Assembly: GCA_964016885.1 (NCBI GenBank)
Contig: OZ024740.1
Location: forward strand, 229,276,001 to 229,340,000
Reading direction: 5' to 3'
Source: Eledone cirrhosa
Lineage: Eukaryota
Length of the DNA: 64,000 bases
The notes below the pieces were generated by a model. The model worked only from the letters and a program-made list of their open reading frames with translations. It was not told the origin of the DNA and did not search any database. Position numbers and translations under genes: made by a program. Position 1 is the stretch's first letter; each line of letters begins with the position of its first letter. Of the stretch, positions 107-61,281 are shown piece by piece.

Positions 107-213
107 ACGAAGGAAATGTGGTAAGGAACCAGGTGGACCATAACGCACCATAACAGTCCAGAATTAGCCGTCGAAACGGCTTGAGCTCAGCTGTCGGGGT
201 CTTACTGGTTCCT
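107..213. mobile_element. Short Penelope-type family A copy: partial 3' tail (minus) joined to inverted arm (plus), between (TA)n tracts
   Basis: Matches pieces of 2987-3153 and 50702-50894 in opposite orientations; flanked by (TA)n on both sides. Confidence 0.7.
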
Positions 214-261
214 ATATATATATATATATATATAAATCTACATACATATATATATATATAT

Positions 262-485
262 TCAGGTTTGAAGGTTTACCACTGGATAGAGATGGTCAAT
301 TCCGTATGGTCAATCTTAATGTGATAATATGTAGAGCACTCAACGTAAAGCAGTTCAACCGTCTTCGTTTGTTGTAGTTGGTGGTGCTAGTACGGAGTTA
401 AATATTATAATAAAATGACAGGAGGCTGGACTTGTGTAAAACCTTTCAAGGATTTACACAAGTCCAGCCTCCTGTCATTTTATTA
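262..485 (-). mobile_element. Tail plus inverted-arm element (arms 408-440 / 453-485)
   Basis: Perfect 33-bp inverted repeat TAATAAAATGACAGGAGGCTGGACTTGTGTAAA; tail carries AGCACTC; related sequence near 55005-55075. Confidence 0.55.
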
Positions 486-906
486 CACACACACACACAC
501 ACACACACACACACACATATATATATATATATATATATATATATATATATATATATATTAATCTACATACATACATATATTTATATATATATATATATAT
601 ATATATATATATATATATATATATATATATATGCATATAAATCTACATACATACATACATACATACATACATACATATATATATATAAATCTACATACAT
701 ACATAAATATATACATACATACATTTACGTATGTATATGGCTATGCATTTATACATTTGTATATATATATATACATGCATTTATATTTAAGTGTGTAAGG
801 TTATATATATATATATATATATATGTGTGTCTAATATATATATTATACACACACACACACACACACATATATATATATATATATATATATATATATATAT
901 ATATAT

Positions 907-1135
907 GCAGTGTGACAAGAAGCTTGTTTCCCAACCACATATTTCCGGGTTCAGTCCCACTGCCCGGGCCGACCAAAGCCCTGTGAGTGGATTTGATAGA
1001 TCGAAACTAAAAGAAGCCCGTCGTATATATGTATATATGTCTGTGTGTCTTTGCGTTTGTGTTTGCCCTCCCACCAATACTTGTTGGTTTGTTGACGTCC
1101 CCATAACTTACCAAGGGGATGCTCCAGCATAGGCG
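907..1135 (+). mobile_element. tRNA-derived SINE (octopus-type), internally deleted
   Basis: AAGAAGCTTGTTTCCCAACCAC..GGGTTCAGTCCCACTG (B-box-like)..GACCAAAGCCCTGTGAGTGGATTTG..GAAGCCCGTCG; diverged reverse copies near 36560-37080. Confidence 0.65.
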
Positions 1136-1189
1136 TAGTCCAAAGACAGAAAAAAAGTAAAATATATGTGTGTGTGTGTGTGTGTAGAA

Positions 1190-1590
1190 GAGGGGTCTCA
1201 AACTCAAGGACACAAAAGGGGTATTACGTCCTGGAGGAGAGGCACAGTGGGCCAAACGTGATGGTGGGTGAACATTTTCACCAGTTATAATCATTTCTAC
1301 TATAGGAACAAGGCATGAAATTTGGGGTTTTAGGGTTCAGTCGATTGCATCGATCCTAGTACACAACTGGTACTTAATTCATCGACCCCAAAAGGATGTA
1401 AGGCAAAGTTGAGATCGGCGGAATTTGAACTCAGAACGTAAAAACGGAAGAAGTACCGTTAAGCATTTCGCCAGATGTGCTAACGATTCCACCAGCTCGC
1501 CGCCTTATTTACACCAGTGATAATGCGATATGAAATATTGGTTCTACCACGGGCCACAGTAGTTCGCGGGCCGCATGTGTGAGCCCCGTT
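1190..1590. mobile_element. hAT-like MITE remnant with a MESC/Meta SINE nested inside
   Basis: Ends GGGGTCTCAAAC / GTGTGAGCCCC and subterminal CGGGCC(G) motifs; SINE in reverse orientation at about 1290-1505. Confidence 0.4.
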
Positions 1591-2986
1591 GGAGATAAAT
1601 AGATAGATAGACGTGTACCCCAACACACACACATTTCTTACTCTCTCTGTCCCTCCCTCTTTCTCTCTTCATTTATATATATATATATATATATATGTGT
1701 GTGTGTGTGTGTGTGTGTGTGTGTGTGTGTGTGTGTATGTGTGTGTGTGTGTGGAGCGTTGTTATTTAGCGTTGTTGAAAAGAGCTGTGGTCTTTGACCT
1801 GACAATAAAAAACTGTAAACAAAATTCTTTCTGTACCAAGGCACACACACACACAAGTTTGTGTGTGTGTGTGTGTCTATCTATGTTTATATATAAGGGA
1901 TACAAATATACAAGTTTGTGTGTGTGTGTGTGTGTCTATCTATGTTTATATATAAGGGATAAAAATATTGCTTTCTCAGTCACCAAGCTTCTCAATTCAT
2001 TCCTTACTACTTATTTTGCTACGAGGTATATTATTTTGCAAGGTACTATTTTTCCCCTGAGTTTGTGATTTCAGAGAAAGGTAAGAAATTCTTCATATTT
2101 TGCATCTTTTGTATTTTGACTTTGCAGTTTCAATTGTCTATCCACTCAAAACATTGCAACAGCTAACAGTGAAATATAGAATTTAAAAAAAAAAAGAAGC
2201 TTTTTGGACTGTGATCAAATGTTTTTTTATTTCAAAAATATATATTTGAAATAGCTTGCTTTTGTTTTGGACTGAAATTTTTTTGTATTTAATTCGTACG
2301 AGTATTTTTTAAAGAATCTAAGATAACTTGATTTGGCCCAGTAATCTATTGATATCAAAATCAGTAGTATATTGAAAAATGGAAAAAATAGGGTAGGGGG
2401 AGTTTCGTGATTTCGAGGGGAAAAGGGGGCGTTTGGTCAATAGTTCTACAGATTTGATACTGTGTTGATATGTGTATATATATATTTTTTCTTTGACCTC
2501 GAGTCGGTGTGTGTGGGTGTTGAGTGTGTGTGTACCCACTCACATTAACTGTGACCGACTGTATTTCTACAGATTTGATTGATGTCCAGCGTCTTTTGCA
2601 GCTATTGGGAGATAGAAACTTGATAGTTTTATGACCTTAACTGAAGTTGATAGCAGTCGCCGTATTTTGACTGCTTGATCTTCATATGAGGGAATAAACT
2701 CTGGGAGTGAACATTGCTAATTTTCTCCCTCATATCAAGAATTTGAAGACAATTCATTTTCACCTGATGAGATCAGTGATAATTGATCATGGCTTCACGA
2801 TCGATCTATCTCATATTGAAACATGTGTCGTGATTAAAATGATTGGAAATTTTACCTTGCCTTCGGATTTTCATTTTGATATATATATATATATATATAT
2901 ATATATATATATATATACATATATATATATATATATATATATATATATATATATATATATATATATATATATATATATATATATAT

Positions 2987-3153
2987 AACGAGGGAAATGT
3001 GGTAAGGAACCAGGTGGACCATAACGCACCAAAGTACTCAATACTTGGGGTAGTAGAGTGGGTAATAGGAACCAGTAAGACCCCGACGGCTGAGCTCAAG
3101 CCGTTTCGACGGCTACGGCTTGAGCTCAGACGTCGGGGTCTTACTGGTTCCTA
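2987..3153 (-). mobile_element. Family A copy (tail plus inverted arms 3066-3104 / 3115-3153)
   Basis: 39-bp near-perfect inverted arms; tail ends ..TTCC(C/T)TCGTT(TA)n on the minus strand. Confidence 0.75.
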
Positions 3154-58837: not shown

Positions 58838-59006
58838 CCGTATTTCCCGGCGCCGCAGAGTCCTCGAGGAGGCACCCTAATTTTGACAACCAAAACTTTG
58901 AAATGAAAAAAAGAATAATAAACAACCTTCGGCCTCCAGGAGGCATGGTAGAATTTTGAGACTTGTTTTAGAAAAAAAGTAGCGTCTTCGACGCCGGAAA
59001 ATACGG
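58838..59006. mobile_element. Tc1/mariner/pogo-type MITE with TA target-site duplication
   Basis: TIRs CCGTATTTCCCGGCG / CGCCGGAAAATACGG flanked by TA. Confidence 0.8.
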
Positions 59007-60094
59007 TAATGCAATATACCTGTCTATACCTGGAGGGAAACTCCACGAACCATCTTCAAGCTGAATTCAGCGTGGTGTAGTCACGTTTAACCTTTCTAGT
59101 GGAATTTATGTCCAGTTTTGTTTGTATCTATTACCTTGGGGTTTTCAGGATATATGGCTCAGTATATTTTTCTAAATTTAGCTTTTTAACGATGGATTGT
59201 CCTTCTACATCAATTTCATTTAAGTTATTGATGGTGGTTTTCCTATAATTCTTATTTGATTCTTTATATATAAATGTAATATATAAATGTCTACTTTGTA
59301 ACTATAACACCGGTCCAACCCATACAATTACCTCCCTCTCACCTCCTGGGAGCAGTAAATATTTATTTATTTTCACATTAATATATTCTTCTTACATATA
59401 GTTAAATATTATTAATTATTTTATAATTAGTATAGTCGTCATAACATCTCTGTAATAACTTAAACATTAATATATTTATATTCACTCCATATAACTTTAT
59501 GGTTCCTGATATAATGTTAGGTCTGCCGTAAATATCTATTAAATTTAACCCTGTTAAACTCGGTGGAATATTCTTTCAAACTATAAATATTGCTTTGATA
59601 AAACTATATAAATTCCAATTCATAATTGGAAAGTTACTAATCTTCCAAACAACTTTTAAGTATTTTAATACAACTGACAACCTGTTATTTGACCAACGAA
59701 TTAATTAGATAATTAATATATGTTATCTGATATACTTGAATCATAAATCGTTTTCGATTTTAATTAAACTCTGATGACACCTATAGTTTATGCTAACTAA
59801 TAGTAAATTGTTAAATAAAATAATTTGCTGTCTGTGGTATATTACTATGGAAAGAAACAATTATCAGTGATTAAATGTCTTGAACTTTTAATTTTAGTTT
59901 ATAGGCACATTGTAACTATATACTGGCTCTGCTTAATACTATCATAGCATTGAGCTAAAATACACCTCGTAAATTAGTAATGTTCCAATTCTTCTTAAGT
60001 CAACTGTTGTTCTCTCTCACCCCCCCCCACACACACATACACACACACACACACACACACACACACACACACACATATATATATATATATATAT

Positions 60095-60198
60095 AATTGT
60101 TTCTACTTTTAGGCACAAGGCCAGCAATTACCCAGTGCATTACTGGTACTTTATTTTATCGACCCCGTAAGGATGAAAGGCAAAGTCAACCTCGGCGG
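60095..60198 (-). mobile_element. 5'-truncated MESC/Meta SINE fused to a family A relative (60198-60385)
   Basis: Core and tail motifs in reverse. Confidence 0.8.
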
Positions 60199-60493
60199 AA
60201 AGAGTCGAAGCCCCGACGGCTGAGCTCTTGCAGTTTCAAAAGCTAGTTTGGAACTAACTGTTGAAACGACAAGGGCTCGGCCATCGGGTCGGAGTCCCGA
60301 CTCTTTCATTTTACCACACTCTGCTGCACCAAGTATTGATTACACTGGTGAGTAATGGTCTAACAAGGCTTTACTGTATCTATTCTGATATCTCTCTCTC
60401 TCTCTCTCTCTCTCTCTCTCTCTCTCTATATATATATATATATATATATATATATATATATATATATATATATATATATATATATATATATAT

Positions 60494-60808
60494 AAAAAAA
60501 CAAATAACGAAACGGAATTAAATTTCGTTTCGTTTGTAACTCACTTTTGTATGACTGACGCTTAAACAATTAAGTTAAAAATGTACATCCACATATGTAT
60601 ACTGAAATACTAGTATGCATATGAATACACACACGTATACATATGTAGATGTACCGAGTTTTTCACTGGTCACTTTACTGTGAGTGTCCAGCTATTCTGT
60701 ATGTAAACACACAGACAAACCGGTTTTTAGAACCGGTTTGTCTGTGTGTAATCATATGCATACTAGTGTTTCAGTATACATATGTGGATGTACATTTTTA
60801 ACTTAATT
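60494..60808 (-). mobile_element. Tail plus inverted-arm element (arms 60568-60633 / 60744-60808; inner hairpin 60707-60749)
   Basis: TTAAGTTAAAAATGTACATCCACATATGTATACTGAAA and its reverse complement; (TA)n flanks. Confidence 0.65.
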
Positions 60809-60895
60809 ATATATATATATATATATATATATATATATATATATATATATGATAAAGAACACAAGAGCGTCTACAACATCAAAAGATTTTTATTG

Positions 60896-60940
60896 GCTTA
60901 CAATGTTTCTTCCTTACGTAACCGTAGGATTCGTCAGAGC
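60896..60940 (-). ncRNA. Minimal hammerhead ribozyme candidate in a 90-bp island between (TA)n tracts
   Basis: Minus strand GCT-CTGACGA-A-TCCTACG-GTTA-CGTAAGGA-A-GAA-ACATTGT-A-AGC; GUA triplet. Confidence 0.55.
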
Positions 60941-61281
60941 TATATATATATATATATATATATATATATTCATAGAGAGAGAGAGAGAGAGAGAGAGAGA
61001 GAGAGAGAGAGAGAGAGAGAGAGAGAGAGAGAAAGAGAGAAAGGACGTGAGAGAGATATAAGGCTGTGTGAATGTAGTGTGTGTTTATGTGTCCATGTGT
61101 GTGTGTGTGGGTGTGTCCCTCCGTGTATGTGTGTGTATTGTTGTGTTTCATAACCACATGCAGATTTTAACTGGCCATGCTTATGATTAAAGACGTTCCA
61201 GCCATGACCAACCGATATTAGTTTGAGGTATTATATTAAGGACTACATTATTCAGGATACACATGCCTCTTGTTCTGTTAA

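Follow-up and report, generated by a model that had tools for sequence, protein, structure and literature searches.

Most truncated Penelope-like insertions in TA tracts of Eledone cirrhosa share a tail hairpin that likely marks where copying starts

Tailed elements with an inverted arm lie between TA tracts

The window analysed here is a stretch of 64,000 nucleotides (nt) from Eledone cirrhosa (assembly GCA_964016885.1, contig OZ024740.1, positions 229,276,001 to 229,340,000 of the forward strand), and it contains 187 (TA)5+ tracts. Between these tracts lie short sequences built like Penelope-like elements (PLEs), with a sense segment that ends in a tail and an inverted arm that omits the tail. 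A preliminary description of this DNA had taken them for about ten unrelated, hammerhead-bearing lineages of mini-elements that converged on (TA)n. With a probability of about two in three, we instead read them as 5'-truncated insertions of endonuclease-bearing (EN+) PLEs in (TA)n, most likely of the Hydra clade, in which a tail hairpin likely sets the start of copying just upstream of itself.

All 18 copies listed in the preliminary description are present. Copies were recovered by cutting the window at (TA)5+ tracts and by self-BLAST, which confirms head-to-head arms in 16 of the 18; the copies at 107 and 7527 consist of two pieces in opposite orientation with no overlap between them. The tails measure 40 to 146 nt in the 17 two-ended copies, matching the claimed 40 to 150 nt, and the arms of the listed elements are 84 to 98% identical, with the tail omitted at a fixed base. 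In 15 of the 18 copies both flanks have a (TA)5+ tract no more than 10 nt away, the three others being 262, where (CA)n comes first, 13741, with (TC)n on one side, and 26579, which is followed by a short interspersed element (SINE). TA enrichment also holds against a control, as none of 24 SINE copies has TA within 25 nt on both sides and 3 of 24 have it at the 3' end. Since the elements had been picked between TA tracts in the first place, a test starting from a motif is fairer: 10 of 12 GAGTGCT sites are located 52 to 88 nt upstream of a TA tract, compared to about 8% of window positions that lie 35 to 90 nt upstream of one, with the caveat that copies within one family are not independent. 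Layout, tails and TA flanks together support a Penelope-like origin and (TA)n targeting. The copies differ in 5' extent, between about 60 bp and 2.3 kb, the end of an open reading frame (ORF) survives in one of them, and there is no head-to-tail hammerhead array, so that neither "mini-elements" nor "retrozyme-like" describes them well. The 29 catalogued elements, a count that leaves out element J at 48064, sum to 9,854 bp, or 15% of the window and 17% of its non-microsatellite DNA. About one sixth of the latter, rather than much of the unique-looking DNA as first stated, is PLE stumps packed in TA tracts.

Family A comprises copies at 107..212 (the last 44 nt of the tail on the minus strand, head-to-head with a tail-less arm on the plus strand), 2988..3151 (minus; tail hairpin match at 3028-3067), 12582..12720 (plus; tail hairpin), 19720..19919 (plus), 20255..20420 (plus) and 50704..50895 (plus), a diverged copy at 60197..60385 (plus), and other pieces at 24885, 48404 and 55845. 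The copy at 50704..50895 serves as reference, with two family-wide ends mapping to 50816 and 50894 and the type example of the tail hairpin at 50822..50848 (plus). Family F is present at 18056..18565 (minus; hammerheads, tail hairpin and a SINE fragment at about 18258-18377), as a short copy at 19281..19535 (plus; tail hairpin, truncated before the hammerhead core), as a palindrome at 57583..58004 (minus; two hammerheads, hairpin at 57642-57669), and at 27985..28235 (plus; hammerhead and hairpin), a copy absent from the preliminary list. Family G consists of 7527..7739, where a long tail-less arm with a hammerhead core at 7627 (minus) is accompanied by the last 47 nt of the tail in reverse orientation, and of a palindrome at 54207..54616 (minus; two hammerheads, hairpin at 54261-54288). 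Family N lies at 26579..26941 (minus; hammerhead core at 26775 and, at 26625-26667, a tail hairpin with a long loop), and an N-like tail with hairpin at 54647..55400 (minus) is fused to a tail fragment resembling that of 262, with the motif at 55072. Element 262 itself (262..485, minus) has a 146-nt tail, 39-bp arms, a hairpin match at 330-406 and no hammerhead core. Two more elements absent from the earlier list are 13434..13626 (minus; hammerhead core at 13623, tail hairpin at 13471-13509) and element J at 48064..48232 (minus), with an arm, a 91-nt tail and a hairpin with one mismatch.

Other elements have the same layout and lack the hairpin. They include the arm-plus-tail palindrome at 13741..13946 (minus) and the arm-plus-tail element at 60495..60807 (minus), the former without a full hammerhead core and the latter without a core, and element 52015..52322, which joins a long tail-less arm with a hammerhead core at 52172 (minus) to a short arm with a 40-nt tail. 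The family B palindrome at 17067..17640 (minus) has two minimal hammerheads and a 57-nt tail. Family H (9941..10132, also 27183-27470) shows the common layout with half a hammerhead and a degenerate GAGTTCT motif; it fits the hairpin poorly, and the arms of its 9941 copy do not overlap.

Hammerheads in part of the elements

A strict hammerhead descriptor gives 13 matches in the window, 12 of them scoring at least 11, compared to a mean of 0.13 and a maximum of 1 in 30 shuffles; no Rfam hammerhead occurs among the 150 of 483 window matches listed. The full core is found in 8 of the 18 listed copies (both of B, F at 18056 and 57583, both of G, N, and 52015), so that the epithet "hammerhead-bearing" stands for these and is unconfirmed for the remaining copies. 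Canonical hammerheads are present in F, G, N and 13434 and were not seen in A, 262 and 48064; a relaxed scan for the CUGANGA...GAAA core found none in 262, 13741, 19281 and 60495. Family A retains only the GAAA, stem III and GUC half of a hammerhead, and truncation may account for the absence of the rest. The hammerheads of the window are single or in inverted pairs, and none form head-to-tail arrays.

Some further hammerhead-related sequences were observed. A TA-flanked repeat of 68 nt with the 3' two-thirds of a hammerhead occurs at 12243-12310, 12739-12803 and 19640-19707, and upstream of its 12243 copy lies a pyrimidine run that terminates in CAG, an arrangement reminiscent of an intron dividing the hammerhead core. 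Hammerhead-bearing PLE-like ends also stand by TA tracts at 15319-15448, 28938-29057, 29099-29236, 8892-9306 and 60851-60940; those at 28938 and 29099 face each other within one TA tract, and 8892-9306 finishes in a B-like tail. A 700-bp repeat (1-66, 12800-13384 and 23279-23980) ends in CUGAUGA without GAAA and begins with sequence matching the end of element 29099. It is possibly the "family C" of the preliminary description, and no PLE peptide was found there. The PLE-like C terminus ascribed to that family could not be recovered: queries with Nematis-like, Hydra, Neptune-like and Penelope-like proteins reveal no PLE peptide in the window besides that of family B.

A co-varying hairpin is common to seven families

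One bulged hairpin, RCTC-stem-loop-stem-NN-GAGY-RCT, recurs in families A, F, G, N, 262, 13434 and 48064; in it, an upstream ACTC is complementary to the GAGTGCT region and encloses an inner stem and a 2-nt bulge. Its 3' end reads GCT in F, G, N, 262 and 13434 and ACT in A, with one mismatch in 48064, and it is positioned about 66 to 130 nt after the hammerhead. With one structured motif in common to seven families, the term "unrelated" is wrong for most of them.

The inner stem has at least 2 pairs in 27 of 30 distinct cases with the 3' half of the motif after a hammerhead core, the metagenome loci among them being preselected for the outer stem and not the inner one. Over 30 instances, 85 of 90 inner positions are paired, compared to 51.6 ± 3.6 in shuffles, with the partner picked by hand where two were possible. 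An alignment of 26 rows, which omits the long-loop hairpins of N and 262 and loci L128, L010 and L019 and adds one F copy, has 97.8% of its cells paired (77.5 ± 1.9 shuffled) and 41 double-sided changes (12.7 shuffled); neither value is reached in any of 500 shuffles, and slid registers give 21 to 56%, though relatedness among the sequences inflates these covariation figures. The hairpin instances contain eight G-U pairs and no A-C pairs, which favors folding of the sense strand. A covariance model made from this alignment has 22 window matches at E ≤ 10, the best 16 of which (E ≤ 0.5; 7 of them training rows) are all in element tails, and none fall in B, 13741, 52015 or 60495. No Rfam family for the hairpin appears among the matches listed (150 of 483 rows for the window, 32 for family G and 5 for loci L123, L125 and L128), where only sub-threshold matches, microRNA-like and similar, occur.

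A description of the hairpin was not found in the literature searched, a scope that subscription papers, Repbase and the supplements of PMC11167929 and PMC4209133 fall outside. In PMC8557442 (Craig et al. 2021), neither the Hydra section nor the motif methods mention it, and the word "hairpin" has 0 occurrences in the main text. The hairpin, together with the two-hairpin rule described below, is what is new; the layout and the TA niche are published in kind.

The hairpin adjoins ORFs of the Hydra clade

A Hydra-profile search of genome contigs yielded 12 loci, and the hairpin stands beside the ORF in 9 of them. The three loci without it are L121, which ends inside the hammerhead, L122, which ends tail-less, and L131, a remote match of 30%. 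Locus L019 is a complete Hydra-type element, an ORF between two pseudo-long terminal repeats (pLTRs), with DKT, CxCX5C and this hairpin, and a second Hydra-type element lies tail-to-tail with it in one TA tract. A pattern scan of metagenome contigs found at least 119 stretches; 122 pattern matches, one of them on a viral contig and many due to chance, were scored, and 10 have a strict hammerhead 44 to 63 nt upstream. The viral-contig match, inside a tRNA cluster, was rejected as chance, and no relatives of Hydra or family B were found in viral contigs.

Among the published Hydra consensus sequences (PMC8557442), the hairpin can be recognized in Hydra-2_Amil and Hydra-2_Ajap, in the tail of each, twice at the 5' end of Hydra-1_Ajap, and in Hydra-1_Crog with one mismatch; Hydra-1_Amil and Hydra-1_Obim, as available there, have no complete copy. 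Eleven motif strings searched in the accessible files of that paper gave 4 matches in hairpin context within about 15 kb of Hydra sequence and 7 Naiad/Chlamys matches with no partner evident in context, counts from which line breaks can hide matches.

The window families resemble the Hydra clade as described (PMC8557442) in their (TA)n targets and, for F, G, N and 13434, in a canonical minimal hammerhead near the 3' end, and the clade is present in Octopus; they differ in that their 3' ends look unlike that of Hydra-1_Obim by eye and that the window has no Hydra ORF. Insertion in (TA)n, a Hydra character, is seen in A, F, G, N, 262, 13434 and 48064, and the tail hairpin, proposed here as a marker of the clade, is carried by seven families. 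On the strength of the shared hairpin, most of the insertions likely belong to the Hydra clade. Such a marker would assign to a clade ORF-less stumps that otherwise pass in repeat pipelines as unknown, as miniature inverted-repeat transposable elements or as microRNA-like.

A Naiad origin was rejected for B, which has a C-terminal endonuclease (EN), and for F, G, N and 13434, which have hammerheads, as Naiad elements have an N-terminal EN and no canonical hammerhead; 13741 and 60495 may be Naiad members. The Octopus Naiad 3' ends available in PMC8557442 bear no resemblance by eye to the window families, and three family strings have 0 matches in the accessible part of its supplement. A stretch at 59134-59301 was also considered as a Hydra remnant and rejected (profile match of 40 amino acids [aa] at E 0.013, no motif).

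Two side observations concern the clade itself. Loci L120 to L130 are Hydra-type animal retroelements found among assemblies of prokaryotic genomes, in contigs that probably represent carried-over host DNA, and the 2,596 Hydra-like proteins found are far above the 27 families listed in 2021.

Both insertion ends fall just upstream of a hairpin

The tail-less arm ends 4 to 14 nt before the hairpin in the 12 two-ended hairpin-bearing window copies, and 8 to 9 nt before it in 9 of them, of which 20255 aligns poorly. In 9 of the 12, the sense sequence after the tail-less end continues with TAT or ATAT. Full-length elements have two hairpins before the ATG (both L019 elements, L120, L126, L127, L128 and L130), the second ending about 12 to 25 nt before it, and in the four elements that show both ends the tail ends at TAT 7, 6, 8 and 7 nt before hairpin 2. 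Both ends obey one rule, typically falling 6 to 9 nt ahead of a hairpin copy, and the tail is therefore the stretch from start 1 to start 2, holding hairpin 1 only.

The ends of family A could be followed in other data by comparing its sense arm (50760-50897) with four independent runs. Matches number 23,784 reads in X24, 19,820 contigs in X1, 9 in X5 and 0 in X21; X24 consists of raw restriction-site-associated DNA reads and is hence biased, with joints from 1 to 6 read starts. Among the rows listed, loose ends continue as (AT)n at two places, after 50894 in 8,074 reads and after 50816 in 3,695 reads, and a third group departs at 50883 (1,386) and reaches AT about ten letters on. No other nearby TAT serves as a family-wide end among these rows. 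Strand-switch joints run from 50762 or 50766 to positions 50793-50855, mostly in both X24 and X1. As the two ends and the inversions recur in other runs, they belong to the family as a whole rather than to this one assembly.

A proposed mechanism with two starts

If each hairpin sets one start of the reverse transcriptase (RT), as is likely, the tail would be explained. An RT-EN protein, probably as a dimer, would bind both hairpins on a read-through RNA and nick both strands of a (TA)n tract. Each nicked 3' end would prime at the UAU ahead of one hairpin, where TAT can pair with the target, giving two cDNAs on opposite target strands that differ by the tail, the stretch between the starts. 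Both cDNAs would end prematurely, in many cases within a hairpin, for instance hammerhead stem II, and be joined head to head into arm, tail and inverted arm. Family B would follow an equal process with a Nematis-like protein and without this hairpin.

This scheme leans on PAc, an Anolis element of the Poseidon clade (Frangieh et al. 2024, PMC11167929), for which both-strand nicking, two internal RT starts that bound the tail and a predicted dimer are reported. The likeness extends to an AT-rich target. In PAc, however, both starts are placed within the ORF, in an AC-rich stem loop, and the part of the paper available gives no motif shared between species; the window and Hydra-type elements differ in having a repeated, co-varying hairpin after each end and TAT microhomology. 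A bolder version of our reading is that in Hydra-clade PLEs across several animal phyla the tandem hairpin pair acts as a ruler, each hairpin docking one RT-endonuclease subunit and placing a start 6 to 9 nt upstream; we put this forward tentatively, at somewhat less than even odds. If true, a single RNA motif accounts for the tail, for the head-to-head inverted arm and for why read-through RNA is needed, and it offers a portable handle to load any RNA into a (TA)n-targeting, telomerase-related integrase. How PLE tails and inverted ends originate has stood as a question since the 2000s, with only one element reconstituted, and a motif whose position predicts both ends across unrelated assemblies turns the question into a direct experiment.

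Several points weigh against the proposed start-setting role or the assignment to Hydra. No Hydra ORF or remnant is present in the window, and the clade assignment of A, F, G and N rests on a short motif for that reason. Hydra elements are described with canonical hammerheads (PMC8557442), and the relaxed core scan found none in the ten family A pieces; the 30-letter majorities of loose ends do not let the 5' half of a family A hammerhead be read. The first pair of the hairpin is mostly A-U in window copies and G-C in ORF-linked and published ones. Folding stability is unremarkable, with z between -0.9 and -2.5 in five of six stretches and +0.2 for A, and the preselection and relatedness noted above bear on the pairing figures. 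Negative controls in other clades are thin, consisting of the window B copies and string searches of Naiad and Chlamys files. N and G have offsets of 4 and 14 nt, and B, 52015, 13741 and 60495 show the arm-plus-tail layout without the hairpin. PAc starts are not target homologous (PMC11167929), in contrast to the TAT microhomology here, and asymmetric copies could arise from later central deletion of palindromes.

Competing explanations

One alternative derives the inverted arm from a single priming event, by self-priming or fold-back of one cDNA or from an antisense template, resolved by the endonuclease and followed by central deletions. Palindromes at PLE junctions have been reported and self-priming proposed from them (PMC3846280), and in many window copies, among them 12582, 50704 and 57583, the center forms a perfect hairpin or falls within a hammerhead stem. 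A fold-back, however, cannot give the second arm sequence that is missing from the first, as is the case in 107, 7527, 9941 and 52015; the non-overlapping arms of 107, 7527 and 9941 and the tail-less arm of 52015, longer than its tailed arm, argue against simple fold-back. In two runs, joints that enter the tail were seen repeatedly, at no fewer than five positions, and the TAT-then-hairpin signature is found at both ends. We therefore regard this origin as unlikely, if worth keeping in view.

Another alternative accepts the same elements and clade and gives the hairpin pair a different job, such as translation control or DNA recognition by promoter or endonuclease, with the ends set by UA-rich microhomology in a duplicated 5' untranslated unit. 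Hairpin 2 is indeed close to the ATG (about 12 to 25 nt), L019 also has a duplication of the unit that precedes each hairpin, and the Drosophila virilis tail is required for endonuclease DNA recognition (cited in PMC11167929). Against it stand the nearby TAT sites not used as ends in A, offsets that remain tight despite unrelated loop lengths, and G-U without A-C pairs, which favors a sense-strand fold. This explanation seems improbable to us.

The convergence first proposed, in which many unrelated Penelope or retrozyme-like lineages move as short units into (TA)n, fares worse and is quite doubtful. In its favor, no alignment is obtained between the primary sequences of the families, two or more protein clades take part, and family A, very abundant and clustered at one 5' extent, could by itself be non-autonomous. 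The co-varying hairpin, however, is common to seven families and adjoins Hydra-clade ORFs, which makes shared descent from a (TA)n-targeting clade simpler than convergence of about ten lineages; 5' truncation is variable, no tandem hammerhead arrays are seen in the window, and PMC8557442 describes the preference of Hydra and Naiad for (TA)n as ancestral to both. Six TA-centered inverted duplications at 95 to 100% identity speak for the palindromes being assembly or library fold-back artifacts at TA repeats. This is hardly credible, because the arms of the listed elements diverge (84 to 98% identity) and omit the tail at a fixed base, and the same layout is present in the reads of another run and in unrelated contigs.

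Relation to published elements

The inverted 5'-truncated copy, the tail, the hammerheads and the (TA)n bias of PLEs are all described in PMC8557442. The belief that such families were new to cephalopods is wrong in kind: File S1 of the same paper includes Hydra-1_Obim and Naiad families with (TA)n preference, the latter in three Octopus species, Euprymna and Architeuthis. As PLE layout and cephalopod (TA)n families are already in print, the headline of the preliminary description restates published biology. For Octopus vulgaris, 31 recently active Penelope-like families are reported, and ribozymes are not mentioned in the portion available (PMC13282606); an element density at this scale was not found in the accessible parts of PMC8557442 or PMC13282606.

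Head-to-head arms, a tail on one arm and junction palindromes agree with the known insertion architecture of PLEs (PMC3846280, PMC8557442). Nearly all window copies differ from it in being stumps of 60 to 600 bp, the asymmetric ones favoring two cDNAs over self-priming, and their tails, at 65 to 146 nt for the window families, exceed the 30 to 40 nt quoted for PLEs. The short palindromic stem III of the window copies is like that of minimal PLE hammerheads, which also occur as opposite-strand pairs 100 to 700 bp apart (PMC4209133). In non-LTR retrozymes, units follow one another head to tail and each contains a type I hammerhead (bioRxiv 10.64898/2026.07.22.740005); this identity was rejected, the window hammerheads being only single or in inverted pairs.

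Family B and its protein

The long copy of family B (30108..32457, plus) has a 988-bp inverted arm (98.4% identical), hammerheads, a 58-nt tail and an ORF end at 31088..31894 (plus), the C-terminal 268 aa of an RT-EN protein. The claimed tie of this family to a GIY-YIG ORF is thereby borne out, the ORF being real and corresponding to the C-terminal EN part, with a CX4CXXC linker, another cysteine after a gap of 7 residues, and YIGET and CCHH in a Nematis-like pattern. It has 15 longer homologues, the best of which, a protein labeled Octopus vulgaris, is 61% identical; these relatives carry an RT, and the window copies do not. A Pfam search did not detect the family B ORF, and 5 of 10 relatives have sub-threshold GIY-YIG matches.

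By eye against the Figure S2 rows available in PMC8557442, the EN of family B has the Nematis features CX2-5CxxC, a reduced linker and CCHH, and it shares with them the short linker after CxxC, YIGET and the R..EA..I...P.LN end. It differs in that full-length relatives have DKS rather than DKG and a long insert between RT motifs, and the likeness is read from the EN part, the nearest named relative being 61% identical. On its predicted protein, family B comes from a second PLE clade, with a Nematis-like EN.

Other features of the window

Six inverted duplications are centered on a TA tract (10080-10378, 10598-11077, 18651-19147, 27472-27571, 47288-47485 and 48327-48540). They are tail-to-tail, with arms 95 to 100% identical, a geometry unlike that of the main elements, and the one at 18651-19147 has 198 identical bp with one hammerhead per arm. 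They may result from fold-back repair at (TA)n or from an assembly effect.

The abundant SINE, of about 186 bp, has 24 window copies (e.g., 61323-61508), some of which are inside or abut PLE stumps (18258, 26945 and 60093). Tandemly repeated units of about 39 bp form a minisatellite at 5240-6090. Broken long interspersed element fragments with RVT_1, zf-RVT or endonuclease matches are found at 39192-42152 (minus), 53205-54185 (minus), 62901-63560 and 51706-51966.

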